Shown: one piece after another, positions 4,839 through 44,321 of the stretch | Numbering within the stretch: the stretch's first letter is position 1 | How the letters are laid out: each line of letters begins with the position of its first letter | NCBI GenBank assembly: GCA_001600815.1 | Contig: BCKZ01000001.1 | Coordinates: 1,211,389-1,275,388 of the forward strand | Origin: Alloascoidea hylecoeti | Taxonomy: Eukaryota | Length of the DNA stretch: 64,000 nt | Direction: 5' to 3' | The notes under the pieces: model-generated | The model's database searches: none | Told to the model about the DNA's origin: nothing | The model's input: only the letters and a program-made list of their open reading frames with translations | Position numbers and translations under genes: made by a program

Positions 4839-6079
4839 AACCACCAATTGCAATCACACAAACCTGTAAAACAAATAACTAGTAACTACCATTGATCAAA
4901 ATCTACAAGTTTCCTTTGCAGTGGATTCAATAAGCATTTCTCTCAGCAGTATTTCAATCACATATAAAAAGATCTTCAGTTGCAAGATTCGTGTATTAAT
5001 ATTATTTGAGAGTGGATGGTATAACGAATATGTGTGTAATTAATAATATTTTTTTTTTCTATGAATTTAGCATATATCTTTGAGAATAGCAAACATTAAT
5101 TTTCTACTAATATTGTACTTATAAATGTAATAAATATGTGCTTATGTAGTCGCATCACAGAGGGATGATGATACCTTATTGGATTAAATGTTTATCATTA
5201 TGAATGGTTTTATAAGTGGGAATACACTTGAAATATGGCATCATTTATTTGTGGATAACCTAATATAAATGTATATCCCTTTATAAATTCTCTAGAGTAT
5301 TGCTTTACACTTAACATTCTTGATTTATATATATGCATACATCGGCTCACAACAACCCTTACCCGACATAAGAGTCGTTTATAAGAATTCGAGAGAAGCA
5401 AATGGTGGATAAGACGAAGAGGCTGTAGTTTTAATTAACACATGTCAGATGCAGGGTAAGAGTAAGAAAATCCCCAACTGATTACAGTGTTGCCAGATAC
5501 AGTAACTGCATTTAAATCTTTTTATTCAAATGCATGCGATCGAGATCTATATGTAAATCTAAGATATATATTATCTCTCTCATCTGAGATCAAATTAGAA
5601 ATATAACGTTTGCTCATACTAAATTTACATTATAGAATACAACAGTTACAAATAATTGTAATCAATAGGTAGTTAGTTATATAGTATAAGCTTAAGGTTG
5701 CAACTATGCAGGTAGCCTCAAAATATAGATCCTGATATCGTTTTACAAAAGTTACATTTATTATTATTCAAGATATCTTGTTCTTTAGTTTAGTTTAAAT
5801 TTACATATGTTAAACAATTGGTATATATCATCATATTTATATTTATTAGCGCTACATGTTGGAATCTCCAAACAATTATAATTGCAGAGTCATACTGTGT
5901 GAAATTTACTTTACTATTAGGTATTAACATTACAGTTTTATCTAGGGTATGTTTAATGAGGTATTTTATAACTAGAACTTAAAAATGTAATTGTTATATA
6001 TAATTGCAAGGATTTGTTTCTTTTTCTCTTCTCTTCTCTTCTCTTTTCAAGTTTTAATTTTAAAGAAAAAATATTAATA

Positions 6080-7106
6080 ATGGTATCTTTAGACAATATC
6101 ATCAAACAAAACGTAGCATTGAGTGCTAATTTAGAGAACTTGGTAGTCGTTGTTTCTGGGGGAACAGGTGGAATTGGTGAAAGTACAGCTTATAAATTTG
6201 CCAAATATACTAAATCACCAACAATTTATATAGTTGGAAGAAATAAGGAAGCAGGAGCAAGAGTTCTTGAAAACTTAAAGAAAATTAACGATGACAATGC
6301 CAAATATTATTTCCTTAGCCATGATTTATCATTGATCACTGAAGCCGATAAGGTCGTCGAAAGTATTAAGGCAGTCGAATCAAAGGTTAATGTTTTATTT
6401 TTATCCTCTGGATTGATGGATCTCAGTAAGAAGAAAACCGAGACAGCTGAAGGAATTGAAAAAAGATTGGCCATCAATTATTATACTCGTTGGAGAATTG
6501 TTGATGGACTTGCTGATTTGCTTAAAGTTGCTGGAGATGCTGAAGAAACTGCAAGAGTTGTTAGTGTTCTACATGCTGGTGGCGAATTCTTTGCTAGACC
6601 AGATGATTATGGATTAAAGGACAGTAAGCTAATTATTAACACTAATATCAATGAAGTATTCAATAGAACTAACTATTTTTTTAGATTTTTCTTTTGCCAA
6701 TTATGGTAGTCATGTTGTTGCATTAAACTCAACAGCAGCTTTGAGATTTGCAAGAGTTTATCCAACTGTTTCATTTAACCACGGACATCCAGGGTTTGTC
6801 CAAACCGGTGTCTTAAGCAACTTACCATGGTATCTTAGATACCCTGCCACTGGTATTATTAAAATCTTTGGTGCTACTCCAGATGAGAGTGGTGAAAGAT
6901 TTTACTATCTATCTGCTACTGCTCCTGAGTTCGCAAGAGGTGGTCATTTAGTCAGTGAAAAAGATGAAGATGTCACTGATAAATCCAAGGTTCCTAAGAA
7001 GACCCCAGCTGGTACTCACGACTGGTGGAGTGTTGAATCTCAAGATGCAGCATGGTTACATACTTCAGAAGAGTTTGTTCTTGCCCGTGCAGCTACCAAG
7101 CATTAA
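6080..7106 (+). CDS. Short-chain dehydrogenase/reductase, paralog 1 (one intron, 6624..6684)
   Basis: Rossmann motif SGGTGGIG, plus GRN and HPGFVQT. The intron GTAAGC...ACTAAC...TTAG joins ORFs 6014..6709 and 6651..7106 in frame. First ATG at 6080. Confidence 0.9.
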
Positions 7107-8171
7107 ACACTCTGGAATGTTCAGTGATATCACAGCAATTTTCTAATAGTTTGGAGTTGTCAATACTTCATAATAATATTTATGTACATCTATATAATCT
7201 TGAATTAATTAATATGCTGTTAATAATATAATATAATAATAATAAACTTAAATTCTTATCGATACTTTATTAATTGAAGTGTATCTTGAAAAGTACGTAA
7301 ATTAAACATTATTGTTAATCCTACAATATCTTTTTCGATTTGCGCATACTCAATTGATTGATTATTGTATTAGCAGCATACTTGTATTAGCAGCATCCTT
7401 ATAACTTATATTTCCTTAATAAATTGCAGCTACAGTTGATTCAGTTCAACGATCTGATGATAATTTGGCCATCTTAAGAATGCCATCACTATCAGTTTGA
7501 ATAATAGTTGTACATGTATAATAACAAGTTTCAGATGGTTCTTGTAAATCTATAAGGTGCTTCGGAAAAGTGATAGTCGATTCTGACCTATTAATATTTA
7601 GAAAAATGACACATAAAAAAAGAAGTAAATATAAAGGTAAACGCCGGAGCACAAACGAATATAGGACACATGATAGCCAGAGGATAAAATTAAGATATCG
7701 ATGACTGATAACATTTCACTTATACATCTCTTTTGTATCTAAAGTGATCCTAGAGTGGCCATAAAGACAATTATACATGATTATAAGCTTTGATTGGTAG
7801 ATTTGTACTGTAGTACTGATTCCGTTACTCTAAACTTAATTGTAAAAGTTTTTGAATTATGAACAATACGGCAGCTTTAGATCAGCATTGATTCTACCAT
7901 ATATATAAACTATCCCCTCGCGGGAATATGTAGTGAGATCGATCGTCACTATAAAAATTGTGTTTTAACAACAGTGACTATTTTGCAAATGGATTTCGTG
8001 ATCACATAATTGCTATATCTACATATTAATGTGAGCGCACGTTCTTATACGCTTTAATCTATATAGCACTATAGATATATTGATACATAAAGGACAAGAG
8101 TACCATTCTATTTGTGCATTGATATTGCCATTATTTAATAATTATAAATATATCAATATATATGATCAATA

Positions 8172-9287
8172 ATGCCATCTTTACAACATATCATCAAGCA
8201 AAATGTTGAGGTCGGTACCAAATTAGAAAACTTGGTAGTCGTTATTACTGGTGGAACAAGTGGAATTGGAGAAAATACAGCTTATAAATTTGCAAAATAT
8301 TCTAAGTCACCAACAATTTATATAATCGGAAGAAATAAAGAAAAGGGAGCAAAAGTTCTTATAAATTTAAAAGAGATTAACGATGATAATGCAAAATATT
8401 ATTTCCTAAGTTATGATTTATCATTAATTTCTGAAGCTGATAAAGTAATCAATTATATTAAAGCAAAAACAGCAAAGGTTAATGTTATAATTTTATCTTC
8501 TGGATTTCTTGAGATTGGTAAAAGAAAAGCATCAATTGAAGGAATTGATAAAAGATTGGCAGTTAATTATTATTCCCGATGGAGAATTGTTGATGGCCTT
8601 ATAGATTTAGTCCAAAAAGCAGCGGAATCTAAGGAACTATCAAGAGTTGTCAGTGTTTTACATCCTGGTATTGAAGGGTTTGTTCACCCAGAAGATATTG
8701 GATTAAGGAAAAGTAATAACATTCTAGATAGGCATACCCTAATATAGGATATCTATAAATACAGTTTAACTAACGAATATTGCTTTCTTAGATGCCGGTA
8801 TAATTGACTATAATTTACATGCTAGTACTTTAAATTCAACGGCGGTTTTGGTATGTATGACAACGGAAATTGAAATTTAAACAGGAATCAGCAATCAAAT
8901 TACTAATTAACCATTATTATATCCTTATATTGACAATTGAAACAGAGATTTTCCAAAGAATATCCAAGTATTTCATTTACTCATGTTTATCCTGGAGTAG
9001 TCCAAACAAACGTTTTAAAGAATCTCCCATGGTACATTAGATATCCAATATCGGGTATTATGCTGATTCTGGGAACTACGGCAGAAGATAGCGGAGAAAG
9101 GATTTTCTATATATCAGGATCAAGCCAAGAATTTGCAAAAGGAGGGGATTTAGTTAATGGAGATTGTGATTCAATTCTTGAATATTCTAAAAATCGGGGA
9201 GGTTGGTGGAGAGAAGAAAGCATAAAGAAAGTATGGAAACATACTTTAGAGGAGTTTGATGGTGCAATTAATAATCCGTATCCTTAA
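8172..9287 (+). CDS. Short-chain dehydrogenase/reductase, paralog 2 (introns 8713..8791 and 8851..8945)
   Basis: TGGTSGIG motif and clear colinear similarity to paralog 1. Splicing GTAATA...TAG and GTATGT...CAG gives a continuous frame. Confidence 0.9.
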
Positions 9288-12627: not shown

Positions 12628-13917
12628 CATTGTATCTTATCGGTGAAGTAATCTTTTATAAGCTTATAAATGAATTATATACGTATTTAAGACTTATCTC
12701 TCTAGGTGATATATTATTATAAGTTATTGTTTGGTGTCATAAGGTCTAATAACTAATTTTTCATTAGACACTTTATTTTCTTTGGATAATAAGTACCCTT
12801 CATTGAGTGAATTCAATCCATTTGGAAGTACCTTAATAGGAATATGTTGAATTAATCCCTTATTAACAGCTTCAGCAACAACCGGTTGAGCACGTCTCAC
12901 AAATTCGGAAATTTCTGGGTTGGAAACCAGACCAGGTCCTCCCATAGAGTAAAAAGGATCACCAGATGAAAAATATGCTAAAGTTTGTGTAACTTTGACA
13001 TTTGGTTTAAGGTTTTTAATGTCATCAGATTTAAATCCTAATAAATTATCAAAAATAACAGGTTTTGTTGAAGAAACAGAATCATGAGTTGCTTGAATAG
13101 TGTTTGCCAATGAAATTGAATCTAAAGCATACACTATATCCTCCCCACCGATAGCTTTAATCTGGTTAACAACATCAGGATCACGATAATCAACAACAAA
13201 ATCTGCTCCTAATTCCTTCAATTCAGCATGATTTTTCTTAGATGATGTTGTAATGATCTTCCATCCAATAAGCTTACCAAATTGAACTGCAATCTGTCCT
13301 GTTGACGAAGCACCTCCCCAAATAAGTAGATATTTCTCTGATTCTTCCGCTTTGGTTTTACTTAATCCAAATGATCCTCCCATATTATGAAATAAACTGA
13401 TTAGAATAGTTACTAAAGAAACTCCTAATGAAGAAGNACCTTCAAAAGTTGTCGGAATACCTCTTGGAATATTATCGGATTCGGATCTATTCAGGCTATT
13501 CAATTTAAAAAATAGATGAGATTTAACAATTGCATATTGCGCAAAGGCTCCATTATGTGGNCCTGCTTTATTTGAACCATGTACAAACCCAACTCCAGCA
13601 TCACCAACCGAGATATTAGTAACTTCAGAACCAATTTTAACTGCAACACCAGCTAGATCGCAACCTGTGATGGCACCAGGTGCTCCATATAAGCCATAAA
13701 AGAGATGTTTCCAGTCTGTAGGGTTAATTGCAGCAGCTTCGATCTTAACAAGGACCTCATTTGGTTTTATGGATGGGACTGGGACTTCTTTAATAACGAG
13801 GGAATCAGTTCCTGTCACAGCGGCAGTCTGTTTTGATGGAATTGACATTTGGGTATATTTGATTTTCAATTGAAGATGAACGTAAAAAGAAGATTTGCAG
13901 CGAAACTTAGTCTTTTA
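12628..13917 (-). repeat. Left arm of 1290-bp inverted repeat (partner 19052..20341)
   Basis: Reverse complement of 19052..20341. Endpoints, N positions and mismatches all mirror (coordinate sum 32969). Confidence 0.97.
12724..13848 (-). CDS. Zinc-independent MDR-family enoyl/aldehyde reductase (YNL134C-like), copy 1
   Basis: Motifs INPTDWKH, GCDLAG, GAFAQY, LIWGGASSTG and KVSNEKLV. First ATG at 13848 (MSIPSKQ). Confidence 0.92.
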   Translation of the reverse strand: MSIPSKQTAAVTGTDSLVIKEVPVPSIKPNEVLVKIEAAAINPTDWKHLFYGLYGAPGAITGCDLAGVAVKIGSEVTNISVGDAGVGFVHGSNKAXPHNGAFAQYAIVKSHLFFKLNSLNRSESDNIPRGIPTTFEGXSSLGVSLVTILISLFHNMGGSFGLSKTKAEESEKYLLIWGGASSTGQIAVQFGKLIGWKIITTSSKKNHAELKELGADFVVDYRDPDVVNQIKAIGGEDIVYALDSISLANTIQATHDSVSSTKPVIFDNLLGFKSDDIKNLKPNVKVTQTLAYFSSGDPFYSMGGPGLVSNPEISEFVRRAQPVVAEAVNKGLIQHIPIKVLPNGLNSLNEGYLLSKENKVSNEKLVIRPYDTKQ

Positions 13918-14813
13918 TATACGGTATAACTGCTATAATATATTATTTAAAGAATTAGGATAAGTTTGAAGAAGTAAGTATACAACACCATATAAACTCA
14001 GATTATTATATTCCCAATAAGCTATGTTAACGAAGTTTGATCAGCCAAATGGAGATATCGTGGTAATTAGTTAACTATGTATAAATCAATATTATTGTCT
14101 CCATATAATTAATATATTAGTTAAATTCTGCCAGACAATTTAAAGCTCAAGGTGCTTTCAATTGTAATAGTTAGCTAGATTGGTTTCAAGAACGACATCA
14201 GGCTCTTAGATAATTATTAGTCAGACAGCACAATAAAAGAATTATACGGCGAATAAATGTTGCGAAGATAATATTATGTAGACTCCAAGTGTCGATTTCA
14301 GATTATATTTCTGCACTACTAAATGTAATTTCGTGGCTTCGTAGTACACTAGATATTTCCGTTTGATACAACATAATTATAAATCAAGTCTATTATATTA
14401 ATCATAACGTCTTTTGGTTTTATATTTCTTTTAAAGTTAGTACACATGTACCTATATTGTCTGATGATTCTTATTGATCCTAACTAAAAGCATAATGTAC
14501 AAATATATATAAATCTCCAACTTAAGGAAAAAACATCCATAGAAGATTGGTTTCAAAAAGATCACAATTGAAATTATACTATTATATTCAATTCACGATC
14601 AATATTTAGCATGAGCTTGTGATCAGCGTATTCAATGAATATCTACATATAAGTACTATACATGCCAGTCTTTCCACTTGTTAATAAAGCTAATTAATTC
14701 CCAGACGTAACGATAATTATTTTCGAAAATAGCGTTATTAATAGGTAGAAAGACTGTACTCTGATGAAAAATCAAATACATACATCGTTAAAACTTTATT
14801 ACTATTTATACAT

Positions 14814-14842
14814 CATACATATACATATACATATACATATAC
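14814..14842. repeat. (CATATA)n microsatellite
   Basis: About 4-5 units, downstream of the orphan ORF stop. Confidence 0.7.
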
Positions 14843-14913
14843 AAACAGATTAAAATATCTAAAAATTCAATTCCAATTCGAATCACTATTTCGATACAAA
14901 GTTCCGTTTATAA

Positions 14914-15891
14914 TTATAAAATTAAACCTGTATAACTTTCTGCCATTCCCCAGTCAATGCTATCAAAGTTATTGCTTAAAACCCCTTGAATAAAACCCGT
15001 AGGAAACCCAAAATGCACATTTAAGAAATCGCACATCACCTTTTCATCATCCTTCTTTAACCCATTTAAATATAATGTTTTTAAAACGGATTCGATTTCA
15101 CTGGCCTCAAATGTTAAATCATCATTATTCGAGGACTTGTAAATATTGACATTGGATAATGGAGCTGCAGCCGAAAGCCAAGTGAATGTTCTAGCTGTAG
15201 ATTGATTTGGAGGATAGGACCCTGGCGCTTTTCCTGATGGTGATCTGGTTGGTGGACCACTTGTAACAATTGGTGCCGCCCGGGCAGGTGAGGCTTTAGT
15301 TGGGATAGGAACCGCTGGATCAGCCTTCGCTGGTTTGGCGCTTAAAATACATTGAAGTTTTATATGGAGCCCGTTATCATGCTCCACTAATAGGGCTACT
15401 TTCTTGGGTTTGGTCAAAATTTTGAGCTGACTGTGTAAATCAAAAATCATTTTTCTCACACGAAGCTGTTGTGGTAATGTTAATGTTAACCCCATCATGG
15501 AATTACTATCCAATTGCAACTTATTGTTAAACTTTCCTAAACCTGAGGGAAATGGTGTGGCTAGAGTTGGCTTCTCTGTATTGGTGGGAGTAAGAGTTGC
15601 TAAAGTGTTATCAGCATGACCATAGCTAGACGTCTCGGCGACAATCAAATTGTACGCACCTGGAGTACAGTTAACACCATGGACCATTTCAAATGAGATA
15701 AATGCGGATGTTATAGATCCAAATATTAGGTTTATTGGGGTTGAAGTTTTTATCTTAATAAAATTAAACATGAATAAATGCGAAAACTTTAAGAATGAAA
15801 GGGGACTAAGCTGGTTCTCACATAATATAATTTCCTGTTTTGCTTTTGTGTTTTTTAAAAATAGTATGGAAGGTAGTACAACTAATCCCAA
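14914..15891 (-). CDS. Orphan ORF, up to 325 codons, with a central Pro/Ala-rich linker; start uncertain
   Basis: A ~1 kb open frame is unlikely by chance in this AT-rich DNA. The track start is TTG; the first ATG is ~40 codons in (MFNFIKIK). No family recognised. Confidence 0.55.
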   Translation of the reverse strand: MGLVVLPSILFLKNTKAKQEIILCENQLSPLSFLKFSHLFMFNFIKIKTSTPINLIFGSITSAFISFEMVHGVNCTPGAYNLIVAETSSYGHADNTLATLTPTNTEKPTLATPFPSGLGKFNNKLQLDSNSMMGLTLTLPQQLRVRKMIFDLHSQLKILTKPKKVALLVEHDNGLHIKLQCILSAKPAKADPAVPIPTKASPARAAPIVTSGPPTRSPSGKAPGSYPPNQSTARTFTWLSAAAPLSNVNIYKSSNNDDLTFEASEIESVLKTLYLNGLKKDDEKVMCDFLNVHFGFPTGFIQGVLSNNFDSIDWGMAESYTGLIL

Positions 15892-16065
15892 TTGGGGAAT
15901 AACGGCATTAATGGATATACATAGTGATACTTCGTGTGATTTGTGTTATATTTTGTGTAATTGTAAACGAAAAGTAAAAGTAATATTATTTGAGTTAAAA
16001 TATCCAGTTTAACGATTGTTAATACTGTGTTAATATACTATTGTATATTTAAACAATTGAGGACC

Positions 16066-16415
16066 TGTTGGTGACCTTATAATTAAAGTGATATCAAAGA
16101 TAACTACTAATTATAAACTAAAAACTTGAAAAACAAAAGAAAGAAAGGAAAGAAAGAAAAAATATTTATATAACCAAAAAGGACTTACCCTGAATTCAGC
16201 TAAAATAAAGCTAAATTCTCAAAGGATCAATACACACACAGTCATTTCACTTACTGTTGGGTATTAAGTTTTGTTAGATTCTATATTAAGCAAGGAATAA
16301 TATTTAGAAGTTACTATATAGTTAGCCATTTTCCCACTTGTTTTGACAAGACAGATATATATACAATAATATAAACAGATAATAACTAAGTTTCAAAGAT
16401 GTCAGATATCAAACA
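16066..16415 (+). mobile_element. Putative 5' LTR of a Ty1/copia element
   Basis: Starts TGTTGG and ends AAACA directly before TGGTAGCGGCG. The gag ATG lies inside its 3' end, as in Ty1. The left boundary is uncertain (alternative TGTTGG at 16255). Confidence 0.55.
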
Positions 16416-16426
16416 TGGTAGCGGCG
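16416..16426 (+). other. Primer-binding site, tRNA-iMet type
   Basis: TGGTAGCGGCG directly after CA. It is complementary to a tRNA 3' end CGCCGCUACCA (U72, A73, CCA) and close to the Ty1 PBS TGGTAGCGCC. Confidence 0.75.
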
Positions 16427-17239
16427 CTGGTATTGCAAGCACATCTAGTGTAGGTGCGGCAATTTCAACAGAAACGATCCGAGCTTTGCCCAAATTAGTG
16501 ATGGGAAAGAACAACGCATCCTTTGAACGATGGGATTATGCTGTAACGTCGACNTTACGGAGATATGGTCTGGCTAAATATATCTCGATGACAGAAGGAG
16601 CAGCTTTTTATGAGGATAATGGAAAGCTAAAGAAAACACTGTCGGAAAGAGAAGTTCTAGAGCATGACAATGTGATGACTATTTTGCTGGGATCAACAGC
16701 GGTCGATCTACAGGTCTACATTGATGTTAGAAAAGGTGCTTTAACAAGTTATGTGAACTTGAAGAAGGTATTTCACTACCAAAAGTCGGTACCTATTTGG
16801 TTAAGAGAGATCACCAGTTTAAGATTTGATGGTGATGAGACTATTATGAAATTTGTGACTAAATTTCAAAAATATTTGCGAGATCTTGAGAGTGGCGGAT
16901 TAGAAATGAGCGATGAGATTGCTGATTCACTCTTATTAAGTACATTATCAGGTCCTTATGAAAGAATCACCGATGATCTGATTAACAGTAATAATGGTAA
17001 GGATTATTCAGATATCCTAAATAGGATGTTAAATATTGAAGAGTCAATAAAAGATAAAGATACAGTTGTGATTGGAAAGGTCAATACACAACATAATGCA
17101 AATCCAAATCGTGGAAGAAATAATAATAATCGTGGTGGTTATAAAAATAATAATTATAGGGGTAATTATAACCAAAGAAAAGAACCACGTAAATGCTATA
17201 AATGTAATTCTTTAGATCATATTTATTGGAATTGTTGTG

Positions 17240-17271
17240 TGTGCTTGCAATACCAGCGCCGCTACCATGTT
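17240..17271 (-). repeat. Perfect 32-bp inverted copy of 16412..16443 (LTR end + PBS + gag start)
   Basis: TGTGCTTGCAATACCAGCGCCGCTACCATGTT is the exact reverse complement of AACATGGTAGCGGCGCTGGTATTGCAAGCACA. Confidence 0.97.
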
Positions 17272-17551
17272 AAAGTTCAAAGTGCCTGTTCTCCCAGTTG
17301 CGCCAAAAAGCCAATCGACTCTTTAGTGAACTGTTCTAAGAGTGTAATATATATCCAACATACTTTCGGGCTTTCTGATCTGGCTATGCATATTTGTATC
17401 TTTATAGTAAGTTTATACCATACTAACTATCGGACACTCCTAGAACTAATTTTCGGACGGGTTTGGTTCCTGAAGTTGCTCTATGTCCCTGCATATTAAC
17501 GGATCATATCGGTGATAGCCCGTCCTAAGTATGATACTCGTTAATATTTCA
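17268..17551 (-). mobile_element. Putative second, dissimilar LTR in opposite orientation
   Basis: On the minus strand it ends ...CTTTAACA directly before the second PBS, with TATATAT ~80 bp upstream of that end. A TG start is possible at 17551 but this boundary is uncertain. Confidence 0.45.
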
Positions 17552-19051
17552 TCAATCCAAATTTAAAAGGCGTAAGGAAAATTAATAAGTATTCAGATAT
17601 TCTCTTATGGGTTAATTATATTTTTATGTAGCTACATGATGAAAATTTAATATCTATTTGATATATGGTTAGCTGAATAACTATAATATTTGTTCGGAAC
17701 CGAACTGGATACCTCTTTTGTATCTGGTGACATCGTTAAACAATAATTATTATCTATATATTAATATATATATATCTATTCTATAAAAACAAGTAAAAAT
17801 TACTGACTATATAGTAAGTACTAAACCTTAAGCCTCATTTTATAACTGATCACGACAAATTTTAATAAAGACAATCTAATCATTTATATCTAACAATATT
17901 GTAAAGTGAAAAATAAAAACTAGAATAGAATCTCCGAAATTGGCTTGATCAAGCGTATAATCATAGAGTATGTACAGTTTTTTCTGTTAAATTCTACAAA
18001 TATTTTTGATAGTTTAAGTTTGGTGAGCAAAAACGAATAATCACTAGTTATATATATGAAATTGCCTGTAAGAATATAGCAGTTTTATAGCTGAAGAATT
18101 ACTTGTATTAGAAAGAGAGGAAACTACTTACTATTTATATGATAGCTATAAAATGCTTAAATTTTACAAAAAATTTAAAGAAAGGTGGGAAGGCTGAAAA
18201 TAATTCCACATAAGTGTATGTAACATAAGAAGAAGAAAAAGGGGTTTCACAAGTGAAGAATAATACAGATTAAGGCTAAGAATAAGATAATTCTAAAATC
18301 GGAAAATATAAGGTACCAATACATATATCTTTTAAACTTGAATTTTTTTGAACTCTTCTTTCGCCATTAGCAATACACCTAGTTTTCTTTCGAGTTGAGT
18401 TTCCATTGAGATTGTTAGTATAAATATTAGAAGAAACAATTCTATCCCCTTTTCCAAAACCGTTGGTGATATTATTAGAGTTGGATTTTAAAAGCTCCAT
18501 GGCCAAATATGGTAGTAAAAGGGATAAACTGATATAGAATTGATTCCGCGACCGTGAACATCAAATCATCAGTATTTAATTATATTAAGTGATCCTAAAT
18601 GCGAAATGAAACTGTTTCTTGTGGCTCTGAGTAGAAATGTATACAAACTATCTAAAAATGCAGTGAACTTTTTATCTACTGTTTTCTTTTCTTTTGCTCA
18701 ATTAATATTGCATTTTGTGATACATAGCACTATTCGTACAAATACATCAAAGTTATAGTATACTACCCAGAAACACCAAACATCTAACAATCATCTTCGC
18801 CCGTAATTATAATTTAGTTTTCTAGATATTTCGTCTTTTCTTAACTGAATATAAACAACTCAGCGCGTAATTATTCGGAACCTACAAACCCTGAGGATAT
18901 AAATATGTTGAAAGTACAATCCGAAAACTCCGTTTATTTAACAAAAAATAAAAAAAATAGAAAAACTTATGAATATTAATTTAAATGGTGTTATGCTATA
19001 TTACAAATCATATAATATGGGAAATTGTAATTAGTAATCAAATTTATTACT

Positions 19052-20341
19052 TAAAAGACCAAGTTTCGCTGCAAATCTTCTTTTTACGTTCATCTTCAAT
19101 TGAAAATCAAATATACCCAAATGTCAATTCCATCAAAACAGACTGCCGCTGTGACAGGAACTGATTCCCTCGTTATTAAAGAAGTCCCAGTCCCATCCAT
19201 AAAACCAAATGAGGTCCTTGTTAAGATCGAAGCTGCTGCAATTAACCCTACAGACTGGAAACATCTCTTTTATGGCTTATATGGAGCACCTGGTGCCATC
19301 ACAGGTTGCGATCTAGCTGGTGTTGCAGTTAAAATTGGTTCTGAAGTTACTAATATCTCGGTTGGTGATGCTGGAGTTGGGTTTGTACATGGTTCAAATA
19401 AAGCAGGNCCACATAATGGAGCCTTTGCGCAATATGCAATTGTTAAATCTCATCTATTTTTTAAATTGAATAGCCTGAATAGATCCGAATCCGATAATAT
19501 TCCAAGAGGTATTCCGACAACTTTTGAAGGTNCTTCTTCATTAGGAGTTTCTTTAGTAACTATTCTAATCAGTTTATTTCATAATATGGGAGGATCATTT
19601 GGATTAAGTAAAACCAAAGCGGAAGAATCAGAGAAATATCTACTTATTTGGGGAGGTGCTTCGTCAACAGGACAGATTGCAGTTCAATTTGGTAAGCTTA
19701 TTGGATGGAAGATCATTACAACAGCATCTAAGAAAAATCATGCTGAATTGAAGGAATTAGGAGCAGATTTTGTTGTTGATTATCGTGATCCTGATGTTGT
19801 TAACCAGATTAAAGCTATCGGTGGGGAGGATATAGTGTATGCTTTAGATTCAATTTCATTGGCAAACACTATTCAAGCAACTCATGATTCTGTTTCTTCA
19901 ACAAAACCTGTTATTTTTGATAATTTATTAGGATTTAAATCTGATGACATTAAAAACCTTAAACCAAATGTCAAAGTTACACAAACTTTAGCATATTTTT
20001 CATCTGGTGATCCTTTTTACTCTATGGGAGGACCTGGTCTGGTTTCCAACCCAGAAATTTCCGAATTTGTGAGACGTGCTCAACCGGTTGTTGCTGAAGC
20101 TGTTAATAAGGGATTAATTCAACATATTCCTATTAAGGTACTTCCAAATGGATTGAATTCACTCAATGAAGGGTACTTATTATCCAAAGAAAATAAAGTG
20201 TCTAATGAAAAATTAGTTATTAGACCTTATGACACCAAACAATAACTTATAATAATATATCACCTAGAGAGATAAGTCTTAAATACGTATATAATTCATT
20301 TATAAGCTTATAAAAGATTACTTCACCGATAAGATACAATG
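19052..20341 (+). repeat. Right arm of 1290-bp inverted repeat
   Basis: Mirror of 12628..13917. Confidence 0.97.
19121..20245 (+). CDS. MDR-family enoyl/aldehyde reductase, copy 2
   Basis: Protein identical to copy 1 except TTAS versus TTSS, with two N-containing codons at the same positions in both copies. Confidence 0.92.
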   Translation: MSIPSKQTAAVTGTDSLVIKEVPVPSIKPNEVLVKIEAAAINPTDWKHLFYGLYGAPGAITGCDLAGVAVKIGSEVTNISVGDAGVGFVHGSNKAXPHNGAFAQYAIVKSHLFFKLNSLNRSESDNIPRGIPTTFEGXSSLGVSLVTILISLFHNMGGSFGLSKTKAEESEKYLLIWGGASSTGQIAVQFGKLIGWKIITTASKKNHAELKELGADFVVDYRDPDVVNQIKAIGGEDIVYALDSISLANTIQATHDSVSSTKPVIFDNLLGFKSDDIKNLKPNVKVTQTLAYFSSGDPFYSMGGPGLVSNPEISEFVRRAQPVVAEAVNKGLIQHIPIKVLPNGLNSLNEGYLLSKENKVSNEKLVIRPYDTKQ

Positions 20342-24289: not shown

Positions 24290-25461
24290 ATGCCAAAAAA
24301 TCAAAATATCAAACCATGGCGTAAATTACTTTGGTTAAAACAGCCGTATCCTGATAATTATGTCTCATCAACTTTTCTATCTCAATTGAAAAGAAATTCA
24401 AACGTTAGACCTTACTTCTACTCAACTTTGTCAATCGATTTCTCTTTGGTCTCTTTACATTTTTGTACTTTAGCTATATTTATAATCACTTTTCTGATTA
24501 TTTATAGTGATAATGATAATGATGATAAATTAAATAAAACTGCTCCTTTGGTTTCAATAATCGCTACTTTTTTAACATGTATTGGTTATTTCATTTGGTA
24601 TAAAATATCAACATTTCAAAATCAAAATCAAAATCAAAATCAAAATCAAAATCAAAATCAAAATCAAAATCAAAATCAAAATCAAAATCAAAATCAAAAT
24701 CAAAATCAAANNNNNNNNNNNNNNNNNNNNNNNNNNNNNNNNNNNNNNNNNNNNNNNNNNNNNNNNNNNNNNNNNNNNNNNNNNNNNNNNNNNNNNNNNN
24801 NNNNNNNNNNAATCAAAATCAAAATCAAAATCAAAATCAAAATCAAAATCAAAATCAAAATCAAAATCAAAATCAAAATCAAAATCAAAATCAAAATCAA
24901 AATCAGAACCCCCAAAAAATCGATATATCAACACATATAAAATCATCAATTTTAACAATCTTTATATTATTAGCATTATCTCCAATATTAAGATCATTAA
25001 CAAAATCTTCATCATCTGATTCAATTTGGGCTATATCTTCATGGTTATCAATTTTAAATTTATTATTACATGATTATTCATTTAATTTAAAAAAAGAATT
25101 TAAACCAACTATATCAACAAATATATCATTATCAATTTCAATTTTACTAGCATCAAGATTAAAAGAATCAATTGATGTATTTTTTTTCATCTTATTTAGT
25201 ATTGAATTATTTGGTTTATTACCTTGGTTTATAAGATTTATTAGAATCATTAATTTGAAATGGTATTTAATTTTAAATGTATTAGTTTTAATTATAACAA
25301 CTATTTCAGTTTATATTGTTGGTGGATTGATGGTTTGGTTTATTTGGTGTGGATTGGAAATATTTATAATTGTTGGTTGTCCTTTATGGTTAATTTCCCT
25401 ACAAAGATATAAAAATGAACTACAAGGTCCATGGGATACTGCAAAACCAATTCTTACTTAA
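24290..25461 (+). CDS. GPI2: GPI-GlcNAc transferase subunit (PIG-C) spanning an assembly gap
   Basis: N-terminal WRKLLWLKQPYPDNYV; after the gap LSPILRSLTKSSSSDSIW; C-terminal QRYKNELQGPWD. Confidence 0.92.
24617..24904 (+). repeat. (CAAAAT)n coding repeat encoding (QN)n, interrupted by a 100-N gap at 24711..24810
   Basis: About 15 perfect units visible on each side of the gap. Confidence 0.97.
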
Positions 25462-40617: not shown

Positions 40618-40691
40618 GGTTCGATGGTCTAGTTGGTTATGGCATCTGCTTAACACGCAGAACGTCCCCAGTTCGATCCTGGGTCGAATCA
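40618..40691 (+). tRNA. tRNA-Val (AAC)
   Basis: GGTTCGA/TCGAATC acceptor stem, A-box TGGTCTAGTTGG, anticodon loop TTAACAC, B-box GTTCGATCC, then a T7 Pol III terminator. Confidence 0.97.
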
Positions 40692-42478: not shown

Positions 42479-44321
42479 ATGATAAGAGTAAACACAGAAC
42501 AATTTCGTTCGGATCTACGTGGATCAATAGCATTATTATCATCTCTGTGCTTGTATCAAGCTGCAAAATGGTCAGGAGAAGCACTACTAGCACTTCCTCC
42601 ACCAGAAACAGATTTTCCAGCACCACAACCTTACTTACCACAGGGCAACAATACTAATGATGATATGATAAATCAGAAGGAGAATGATCAATTATTACTA
42701 GCTAAAATATATTTTGATTGTAAAGAATTTGATAGGGCTGCATTTCTTTTGAAGAATTGTGTTGGAACACGCGCTACATTTCTAAGGCTATATTCAAAAT
42801 ACATAGCTGGAGAAAAGAAGAAAGAGGAGGAATCTGATGGTGTTTTGGGATCCACCAGTGGGTCGGCATCAAACCAAAACTTGTTGCCAATAATGAGGGA
42901 TATTGATGCCTATATGAAGAAAACAAACACACCAGATCCATTTATAAGTTACTTGTTAGTTATTTTTCTCTCGAAATTGAACTTTTTACTGCTTAATATA
43001 CTAATTAATATGTTTTCTGTAACAGGGCAGGTATCATATATTCGCGTCAAAACAACGAGAATGAAGCGATTAAAATGCTAGTTCACTCAATTACGATGTA
43101 TCCTTATAACTGGGGAGCATGGAAACAGCTTTTATCGTGCTATGGCTCATTCGACAATTTGACAGCATTAATGACAGACTTACCATCAAATATAATGACA
43201 TCGATGTTCATGCTAGTAGCAAATCAGGAGTTCTTTAAAGCTGATGACAAAGTATTTGAACTATTATCAGAGTTAGAAGGAGTTTTCCAGCAATTTAACT
43301 TTTTAACAATTCAACGAGCATTGATCAATTACCATTCCCTTGAATACCTCGAATCTGAAAAGCTGTTTGATCAAGTTCTGAAGACAGACCCTTGCTGCCT
43401 TGATGACTTAGACACATATTCAAATATTTTGTATGTTCAAGATAAACAGGCAAAACTGTCATTTTTAGCGCATTTATCACTATCTATAGATCGATTCCGT
43501 TCTGAAACATGTTGTATAGTCGCGAACTACTATAGTTTGAAGGCTGAACATGAAAAGGCAATCATCTATTATAGAAGGGCACTGAGCTTGAACAGAGATT
43601 GTTTAAGTGCATGGACATTGATGGGGCACGAATTTGTTGAATTGAAAAATTCTTGTGCAGCTATTGAATCTTATAGAAGAGCTGTTGGTATGTGTTTCTT
43701 TTATTTGAAATAATGATACATAAAAGCTAATGATTTTTAGATACAAACAAAAAGGATTTTAGAGCATGGTATGGATTAGGACAAGCATATGAAGTTTTAG
43801 ATATGAACTATTACTCGTTATATTATTACCAGAAAGCAGCATCATTAAAGTGAGTAGATTCTTCTTTATTGACATTAGAAATTTTTCAGAATCGAATTCT
43901 AACTTCTGTTCATAGACCTCTCGACACAAGAATGTGGCAAGCAATAGGAAATTCGTACGAAAAACTATCCAATCTAGATGATTCTGTAAAATCCTATCGG
44001 CGCGCACTGACACTGTCCCCCACTGATCCTATCTTATTATACAAACTTGGCCAGTTATACGACCGAGTAAAAGATCATTATAATGCATTTCAATATATGT
44101 CGATGTGTCTTGCGGAAGAAGAAGCAGAGTGTGTTACTGATGAAACCTCGAAAGCTAGAATATGGCTCGCGCGATATCAAGTTCGGAGAGGAGACTGGGC
44201 TAAAGCCAGCGAGTTGGTAGATCAGATGACTATGGGAAGTAAATCAGACTTAGAAGAAGCTAAAAGTATTGGGAGAGAGGCGAAAATGCGATTGCGATCA
44301 GGAAATCTGTCTGGTAAATGA
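42479..44321 (+). CDS. CDC23: Anaphase-promoting complex subunit APC8 (introns 42955..43025, 43688..43740, 43850..43915)
   Basis: [67 protein letters not shown] motifs; splicing gives a continuous frame. Confidence 0.94.

Follow-up and report, generated by a model that had tools for sequence, protein, structure and literature searches.

Introduction

The closest described systems are the Ty1/copia LTR retrotransposons (Pseudoviridae) of budding yeasts, including Ty1, in which gag starts inside the LTR, Ty2, and Tca2 of Candida albicans. The Tca2 LTR is given as 280 bp long and starting with TGTTGG (PMC4139406). For Ty1 and Ty2, the start of the internal region can be read from primers placed at nt 335/333 (PMC7055915). 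Gag-derived inhibitors are known in Ty1 (PMC4599808, PMC8458377; PMC4551931 is cited together with these two), and the first of these sources describes p22 as Gag's C-terminal half, produced from an internally initiated transcript. To our knowledge, host-fixed Gag-derived inhibitors in yeasts outside Saccharomyces Ty1 are scarcely documented.

Here, we analyzed a locus in a 64-kb stretch of DNA (the whole stretch is hereafter referred to as the window), for which a first-pass annotation had proposed a Gag-only copia cassette that restricts retrotransposons. Instead of a defence locus, this is most likely what remains, in inert form, of two LTR retrotransposons of the Ty1/copia kind. The locus carries two LTRs that start with TGTTGG, as in the Tca2 LTR sequence reported, but are short (161 bp and 93 bp, versus 280 bp in Tca2; PMC4139406). 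The primer-binding site (PBS) begins with TGGTAGCG directly after the LTR, as in the Ty1 and Ty2 internal-region starts given in PMC7055915. In addition, a copia-type Gag with a CCHC knuckle is encoded, and the distant relatives of this Gag have the copia domain order. As in Ty1, gag starts inside the LTR. In contrast to Ty1/copia elements, this copy lacks protease, integrase, reverse transcriptase (RT), polypurine tract (PPT), 3' LTR, and target-site duplication (TSD).

Three further comparisons can be made. As with p22/p18 of Ty1, a candidate Gag-derived protein from its own element family could act in trans on particle assembly. The open reading frame (ORF) differs from p22/p18 in that it encodes the N-terminal 279 residues of Gag through the knuckle, followed by 87 unrelated residues, in one rearranged copy; it is thus an N-terminal part with a foreign tail and not Gag's C-terminal half from an internal transcript. 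TRIMs and other small non-autonomous LTR elements, as far as their published descriptions go, resemble the 93-bp unit of this locus (unit B), which likewise is a very short terminal repeat with a high summed depth. In this copy, unit B adjoins a PBS and leader that do not differ from those of the coding element, as expected of a parasite borrowing the proteins of that element; unlike in TRIMs, no complete B element (LTR, PBS, short interior, PPT, and LTR) was present among the copies inspected. Finally, in inverted Ty pairs, convergent elements with homologous interiors likewise form a long inverted repeat; at this locus only the end product is seen, from which we infer the mechanism.

Materials and Methods

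Contigs of four public runs (X1, X2, X3, and X5) were mapped to positions 14000-19000 of the window with a likeness threshold of 80%. X1 and X5 are metagenome runs, and X2 and X3 are isolate runs labelled 'organism A'; the runs derive from three studies in all, which may have used one strain. The flanks of the locus (14000-16303 and 17333-19000) had a uniform contig depth of approximately 10, 6, and 63 in X1, X2, and X3, respectively, with 0-2 differences from the window, and served as the reference for depth. Pol domains were searched for by a Pfam scan of 22 of the 24 window ORFs of at least 150 aa.

Results

Element A and its gag frame

The features of the locus are listed in Table 1. The first-pass annotation had reported an LTR-like end followed by a PBS and gag, and all three were recovered in this order. 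The left LTR, however, had been drawn from 16066, a position that falls in a separate low-copy repeat; repeat copies of the LTR begin at 16255 in all four runs, as judged from the loose ends of contigs. At this left edge, single-copy contigs covering 14000-16303 enter the LTR by 49 letters in X1, X2, and X3. Both LTRs of the locus have the termini TGTTGG...AACA, with limits defined by repeat copies, and both are adjoined by the 12-nt candidate PBS TGGTAGCGGCGC, of which the first 8 nt are identical to the beginning of the Ty1/Ty2 internal region. A search of literature full text found the 12-nt string in four papers, all in unrelated contexts. No 3' copy of LTR_A was found at the locus, and no 5-bp TSD borders it, the outer flanks being CTTAC (left) and TACTT (right).

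Table 1. Coordinates of the features at the locus (positions in the window).
Feature	Position	Strand	Description
Low-copy repeat	15946..16215	.	Holds 16066
5' LTR (LTR_A)	16255..16415	+	161 bp, TGTTGG...AACA; repeat copies start at 16255 in 4/4 runs
gag, truncated	16399..17234	+	Start codon to last Cys of CCHC; 279 codons, last codon completed by 17235
Candidate PBS TGGTAGCGGCGC	16416..16427	+	12 nt; adjoins 3' end of LTR_A
Leader	16428..16443	+	16 nt, gag codons 10-15; inverted copy at 17240-17255
Filler TTGTG	17235..17239	.	5 nt; duplicates the neighbouring TTG (left) and TGTG (right); read from the sequence
Inverted leader and PBS	17240..17267	-	Leader 17240-17255, PBS 17256-17267
LTR-like unit B	17268..17360	-	93 bp, TGTTGG...AACA on the minus strand; repeat limits from contig loose ends
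Single-copy DNA read by the ORF tail	17361..17499	+	Stop at 17497-17499
Solo LTR of the LTR_A kind (A2), diverged	17714..17873	-	Approximately 160 bp

The gag start codon lies inside LTR_A and opens an ORF of 366 codons (16399-17499) that is uninterrupted, as had been stated, and contains one N at 16554. The Pfam family Retrotran_gag_2 matched residues 134-220 with 28.9 bits (cut-off, 27). The knuckle CYKCNSLDHIYWNC follows the pattern CX2CX4HX4C at residues 266-279, with its last Cys codon at 17233-17235. A search of a protein library gave 30 matches, 19 of which were copia-type Gag or Gag-Pol proteins whose match ended at query residues 276-287, in agreement with the earlier observation that similarity stops at the last Cys of the knuckle. 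Among the other matches, three reached residues 309-310, four covered the tail only, and four ended earlier; the early-ending matches included two fragments of other copies of the same family (P0001 and P0002, 90% identical). Outside its own family, the Gag shared only 21-41% identity with library proteins. A word-index protein search with the 366-aa ORF yielded no match among proteins of near or greater length. Three full-length Gag-Pol relatives out of the 30 matches were scanned, and each contained gag, CCHC, a protease barrel, integrase, and RVT_2, arranged in this order.

None of the pol domains (protease, integrase, or RT) was detected by Pfam in the 22 window ORFs scanned, which bears out the reported lack of pol. 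In all four runs, contigs of the family follow gag to 17234 and then exit the window, and their continuation reads in frame as CPIKKAQDEA. Since the family gag runs on past 17234 in every run, the break at 17234/17235 is real; and since this copy has no pol while other copies continue beyond that point, the locus is a truncated member of the family and not a whole element.

The local gag is approximately 1% from the family consensus. Among the variants listed, fixed private differences from the high-depth consensus were located at 16588, 16799, 16870, 17099, and 17104, and all five were nonsynonymous (window to consensus: M64V, W134L, K158Q, A234E, and P236S). This ratio of five nonsynonymous to no synonymous changes among the variants listed, small as the numbers are, fits what would be expected under relaxed protein constraint.

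Unit B

Unit B showed no meaningful alignment to LTR_A except for the termini TGTTGG...AACA. Read on the minus strand from right to left, it is followed by the PBS (17267-17256) and the leader (17255-17240), which together form an inverted stub of 121 bp. The PBS adjoins the AACA of unit B exactly as it adjoins LTR_A, and the stub therefore represents a genuine 5' end, belonging to a second element, instead of a random fragment. The earlier claim of different LTR-like DNA facing the opposite way was thus right as to identity and orientation, whereas its extent, drawn as 17268-17551, has to be shortened: that interval consists of the 93-bp repeat and unique DNA, with 17361-17735 at single-copy depth.

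Summed contig depth, which does not equal copy number, was approximately 20-47 times that of the flanks in the gag bins and reached 584, 944, and 748 times flank depth in X1, X2, and X3, respectively, in the bin 17173-17339. At 17267 and at 17360/17362, contigs run out of unit B into AT-rich sequence that varies between them. The same two boundaries were observed in four other copies of unit B, represented by predicted proteins of NCBI contigs (P0004 to P0007) with differing flanks. All four were solo copies without a PBS; a short LTR joined to a PBS was seen once, in the window. These four unit-B ORFs were also the only ones found when the 87-aa tail was searched against a collection of 5.8 billion proteins. 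Within the 64-kb window, no second copy of unit B was found.

In addition, one contig of X5 returns from 17360 to 17256, giving unit B and the PBS and then unit B again; it may represent a miniature LTR-PBS-LTR element or a tandem. Judged by these copies, unit B appears to behave as a short, mostly solo LTR, and its copies are possibly extrachromosomal or clustered. A miniature non-autonomous element may have the 93-bp unit as its LTR and share its PBS and leader with an autonomous partner. In the Gag frame, unit B has a TAA immediately ahead of the PBS, and a B-type 5' end would therefore not open this Gag at the same position.

Exact-pattern scans with the core of unit B, and with the PBS and leader, gave no matches in metagenome contigs or in viral contigs, in collections that may lack this organism. 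No Rfam family reached its gathering score in the window and none had an E value of 1 or less in 16000-18200; on 13900-19100 there was one miRNA match at chance level (E 1.2). A tRNA scan of the window detected tRNA-Val at 40618-40691 as the only tRNA, with no tRNA-iMet, and no tRNA or other Pol III gene was found near the locus. Unit B thus corresponds to no known small RNA in Rfam, nor can the nest of relics be attributed to a Pol III gene.

Inverted repeat and joint

The perfect 32-bp inverted copy of the LTR end, PBS, and gag start described in the first-pass annotation was confirmed: the arms (16412-16443 and 17240-17271) are 32 nt long and 100% complementary (BLAST E 7e-9 within the window). 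They comprise the AACA of the LTR end, the PBS, and the adjoining leader. In the 64 kb, exact matches to their 15-nt core ACATGGTAGCGGCGC are confined to the two arms (0.15 matches expected at up to three mismatches). The inverted copy does lie shortly after the knuckle, as claimed, at a distance of 5 nt instead of 4. It had also been supposed that the sense RNA would fold a 32-bp stem, and the predicted minimum-energy structure of 16390-17300 does hold the whole stem, the arms alone accounting for -63.9 kcal/mol; in this prediction the stem is thermodynamically trivial, as it would follow from any perfect repeat.

Among the contigs listed, none bridges 17234-17268 and none covers 17235-17332, and the joint rests on the assembly of the window. 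The same left junction and a matching right flank were present in runs of all three studies; the locus is thus not obviously strain-private, in runs that may be from one strain. A second joint between gag and unit B, leading from 16793 to 17334 on opposite strands, was detected at single-copy depth in X2 and X3. Rearranged joints of the A and B types are therefore not unique to this locus, and such rearrangements recur.

Open tail

Behind Gag, the reported new tail is indeed open. After the break, the frame (17236-17499) continues for 87 codons through the inverted PBS, unit B, and 136 nt of unique DNA. Contigs covering 17333-17735 were at single-copy depth with no differences in X1 and X3, and a contig of X2 spans 17333-17916. 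Shuffling the tail 20,000 times left it open in only 0.74% of cases (p ~0.007), and among 3542 windows matched to it in length in flanking non-coding DNA, only 8 were open. The open tail is probably a chance event, an accident of one in 140, although it could also hint at a kept frame.

Surroundings of the locus

The locus is embedded in a nest of LTR relics, consisting of A2 and the repeated stretches at approximately 14683-14860, 15946-16215, and 18008-18174. For A2, positions 16303-16404 aligned to 17825-17728 with 76.5% identity over 102 nt (E 6e-15); a longer alignment was also obtained, and other copies at approximately 88% identity were present in contigs. The low-copy repeat around 15946-16215 was matched by contigs of 2414-2605 letters that derive from other places; these aligned over 15946-16204 or 15952-16215, differed at 16-22 positions, and contained 17-31 gap letters. 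The stretch 14683-14860, downstream of the ORF at 14914-15771, is repeated at a summed depth approximately 12 times that of the flanks and has a weak, AT-rich likeness to the LTR_A kind.

One joint leads from 16026 to 18074 and skips 2047 bases including the cassette, at single-copy depth in X1 to X3. It was considered as an empty-site allele and set aside, given its short side (29 letters), the likeness threshold of 80, and the unique parts of the nest, which are at flank depth; the joint may come from a paralogous site or from a weak alignment.

Discussion

A neutral deletion with end-joining between two convergent elements that shared PBS and leader probably produced the locus. Element A on the plus strand and element B on the minus strand would once have lain tail to tail, and their homologous interiors would have formed an unstable long inverted repeat favouring deletion. 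Inverted Ty pairs are unstable, and long inverted repeats tend to break and delete, leaving asymmetric remnants. A single deletion would have removed everything between position 17234 in gag and position 17240 in the leader of B, and the ends would have been joined with five filler bases. Element A would thereby have kept its 161-bp 5' LTR, PBS, and gag to the zinc knuckle, and element B only its 93-bp LTR, PBS, and the 16 nt of leader common to A. The 32-nt repeat would then be a leftover of sequence common to both elements and not something built for a purpose. The parts, boundaries, break, repeat status, and missing TSD were observed, whereas we infer in what order the events took place and that two full-length elements originally existed.

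Several observations point to such a deletion. First, LTR_A and unit B are unrelated except for their termini, which excludes the fold-back of one RNA and requires two elements. Second, no 5-bp TSD is present although the copy is young (approximately 1% from the consensus), which argues against a single integration of a ready-made chimera. Third, the inner joint links two internal positions through filler that repeats its neighbours, and thus looks like an end-joined deletion; end-joining junctions often carry filler repeating neighbouring bases. The surrounding nest of relics was counted in favour of the relic reading, as were the real break in gag, the LTR-PBS junction of unit B, the five nonsynonymous changes, and the second A/B joint, and the open 87-codon tail, the presence of the locus in runs of three studies, and the unbridged joint among the contigs listed were counted against it. 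The first-pass annotation had offered a deletion between two opposed elements as a fallback; with two different LTRs, a real break, filler, and no TSD, this becomes the best explanation. Nesting, whether of B within A or the reverse, was rejected, as the LTR or continuing sequence expected from it is missing on either side.

A single aberrant cDNA is an unlikely source of the locus. In that case, RT would have switched between co-packaged A-type and B-type RNAs, or two cDNAs would have recombined, and the resulting inverted chimera would have been integrated in one step. Both outer termini of the locus (TGTTGG...CCAACA) might be accepted by the integrase of the family, B-type RNA, having the PBS and no fewer than 16 nt of leader in common with A, may use the machinery of A, and another A/B joint exists elsewhere (16793/17334). 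These points are met by the lack of a TSD in a young copy whose flanks are essentially identical in three runs, and by an inner joint that connects two internal sequences through filler, which is untypical of a strand-transfer site.

It is decidedly unlikely that the joint of gag to the inverted PBS, or the link to the flank, was made by an assembler walking through approximately 1 kb of multi-copy sequence, or arose in cloning. The gag and unit B sequences are multi-copy, single N calls occur in the window (one of them in gag), only 0.75-0.83 of sampled window words were present in the four best runs, X1 to X4, and the joint is unbridged among the contigs listed. However, 17234 and 17240 have no common repeat that would let an assembler jump from one to the other. 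Private variants are present in the local gag, and at 16588 the window letter was found in X1 at approximately single-copy depth (7.6 of 285.7). Moreover, a left-flank contig enters the LTR, and right-flank contigs extend 28 letters into unit B in three runs, although this is below the 31 letters required.

The restriction cassette originally proposed would be a domesticated locus in which Gag(1-279) with its 87-aa tail poisons particles, and/or the PBS is hidden or titrated, or RNA silencing fed, by a hairpin or by antisense RNA from unit B; on the evidence analyzed, we regard this candidate as highly improbable. Such a cassette would be a candidate brake, kept and expressed, on a copia-like family that is still active, through protein or RNA, and the chance that the locus is one appears very slim. 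As a brake, Gag(1-279) with the tail could enter particles without Pol and disturb them, the stem could bury the PBS, or antisense RNA driven by unit B could base-pair with active elements at their PBS and leader; selection would then have left its trace in the open 87-codon tail. Consistent with this, the Gag frame is uninterrupted, the tail is open to an extent beyond chance (p ~0.007), the 32-bp stem is part of the minimum-energy fold, and the family, at high summed depth with near-identical copies, would offer something to restrict; Gag-derived inhibitors have a precedent in Ty1, as far as covered by the sources cited above. On the other side, unit B has a TAA directly before the PBS in the Gag frame and is a common solo repeat instead of a dedicated promoter, and the locus sits among debris of transposable elements. 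In addition, a 32-bp arm is short for a trigger of RNA silencing.

Taken as the remains of a deletion between convergent elements, the locus calls for routine annotation, as a copia-like element that has been truncated, together with a solo-type LTR stub, within the transposon nest of an AT-rich yeast. The corrected boundaries are useful for a repeat library of this genome. The locus would matter more if the Gag-only frame were expressed and conserved. Unit B merits a genome-wide look, having a very high summed depth and a PBS and leader in common with the coding element.

Additional observations on the window

The window has a GC content of 32%, and its genes include PRP8, a four-repeat ion channel, a PDR-type ABC transporter, fumarase, and CDC23; they are of the yeast type, without long introns. 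The CDC23/APC8 homologue appears as two overlapping ORFs (42479-43081 and 43075-43713), which may reflect a frameshift, a short intron, or a sequencing error. An assembly gap of 100 N is located at 24711-24810, in or beside a GPI2-like ORF. Two short-chain dehydrogenase genes (6073-6627 and 8165-8716) are arranged in tandem with 77% DNA identity.

An inverted duplication of 1290 bp with 99.8% identity was identified at 12628-13917 and 19052-20341. An origin of this duplication by fold-back at the 32-nt repeat was rejected, as the two symmetry axes differ (16484.5 versus 16841.5). The 5.1-kb spacer between the copies holds the transposon nest and the ORF at 14914-15771, which has no Pfam match. 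Each copy encodes an intact zinc-type alcohol dehydrogenase of 374 aa, and single Ns are located at the mirror positions 13437/19532 and 13561/19408.
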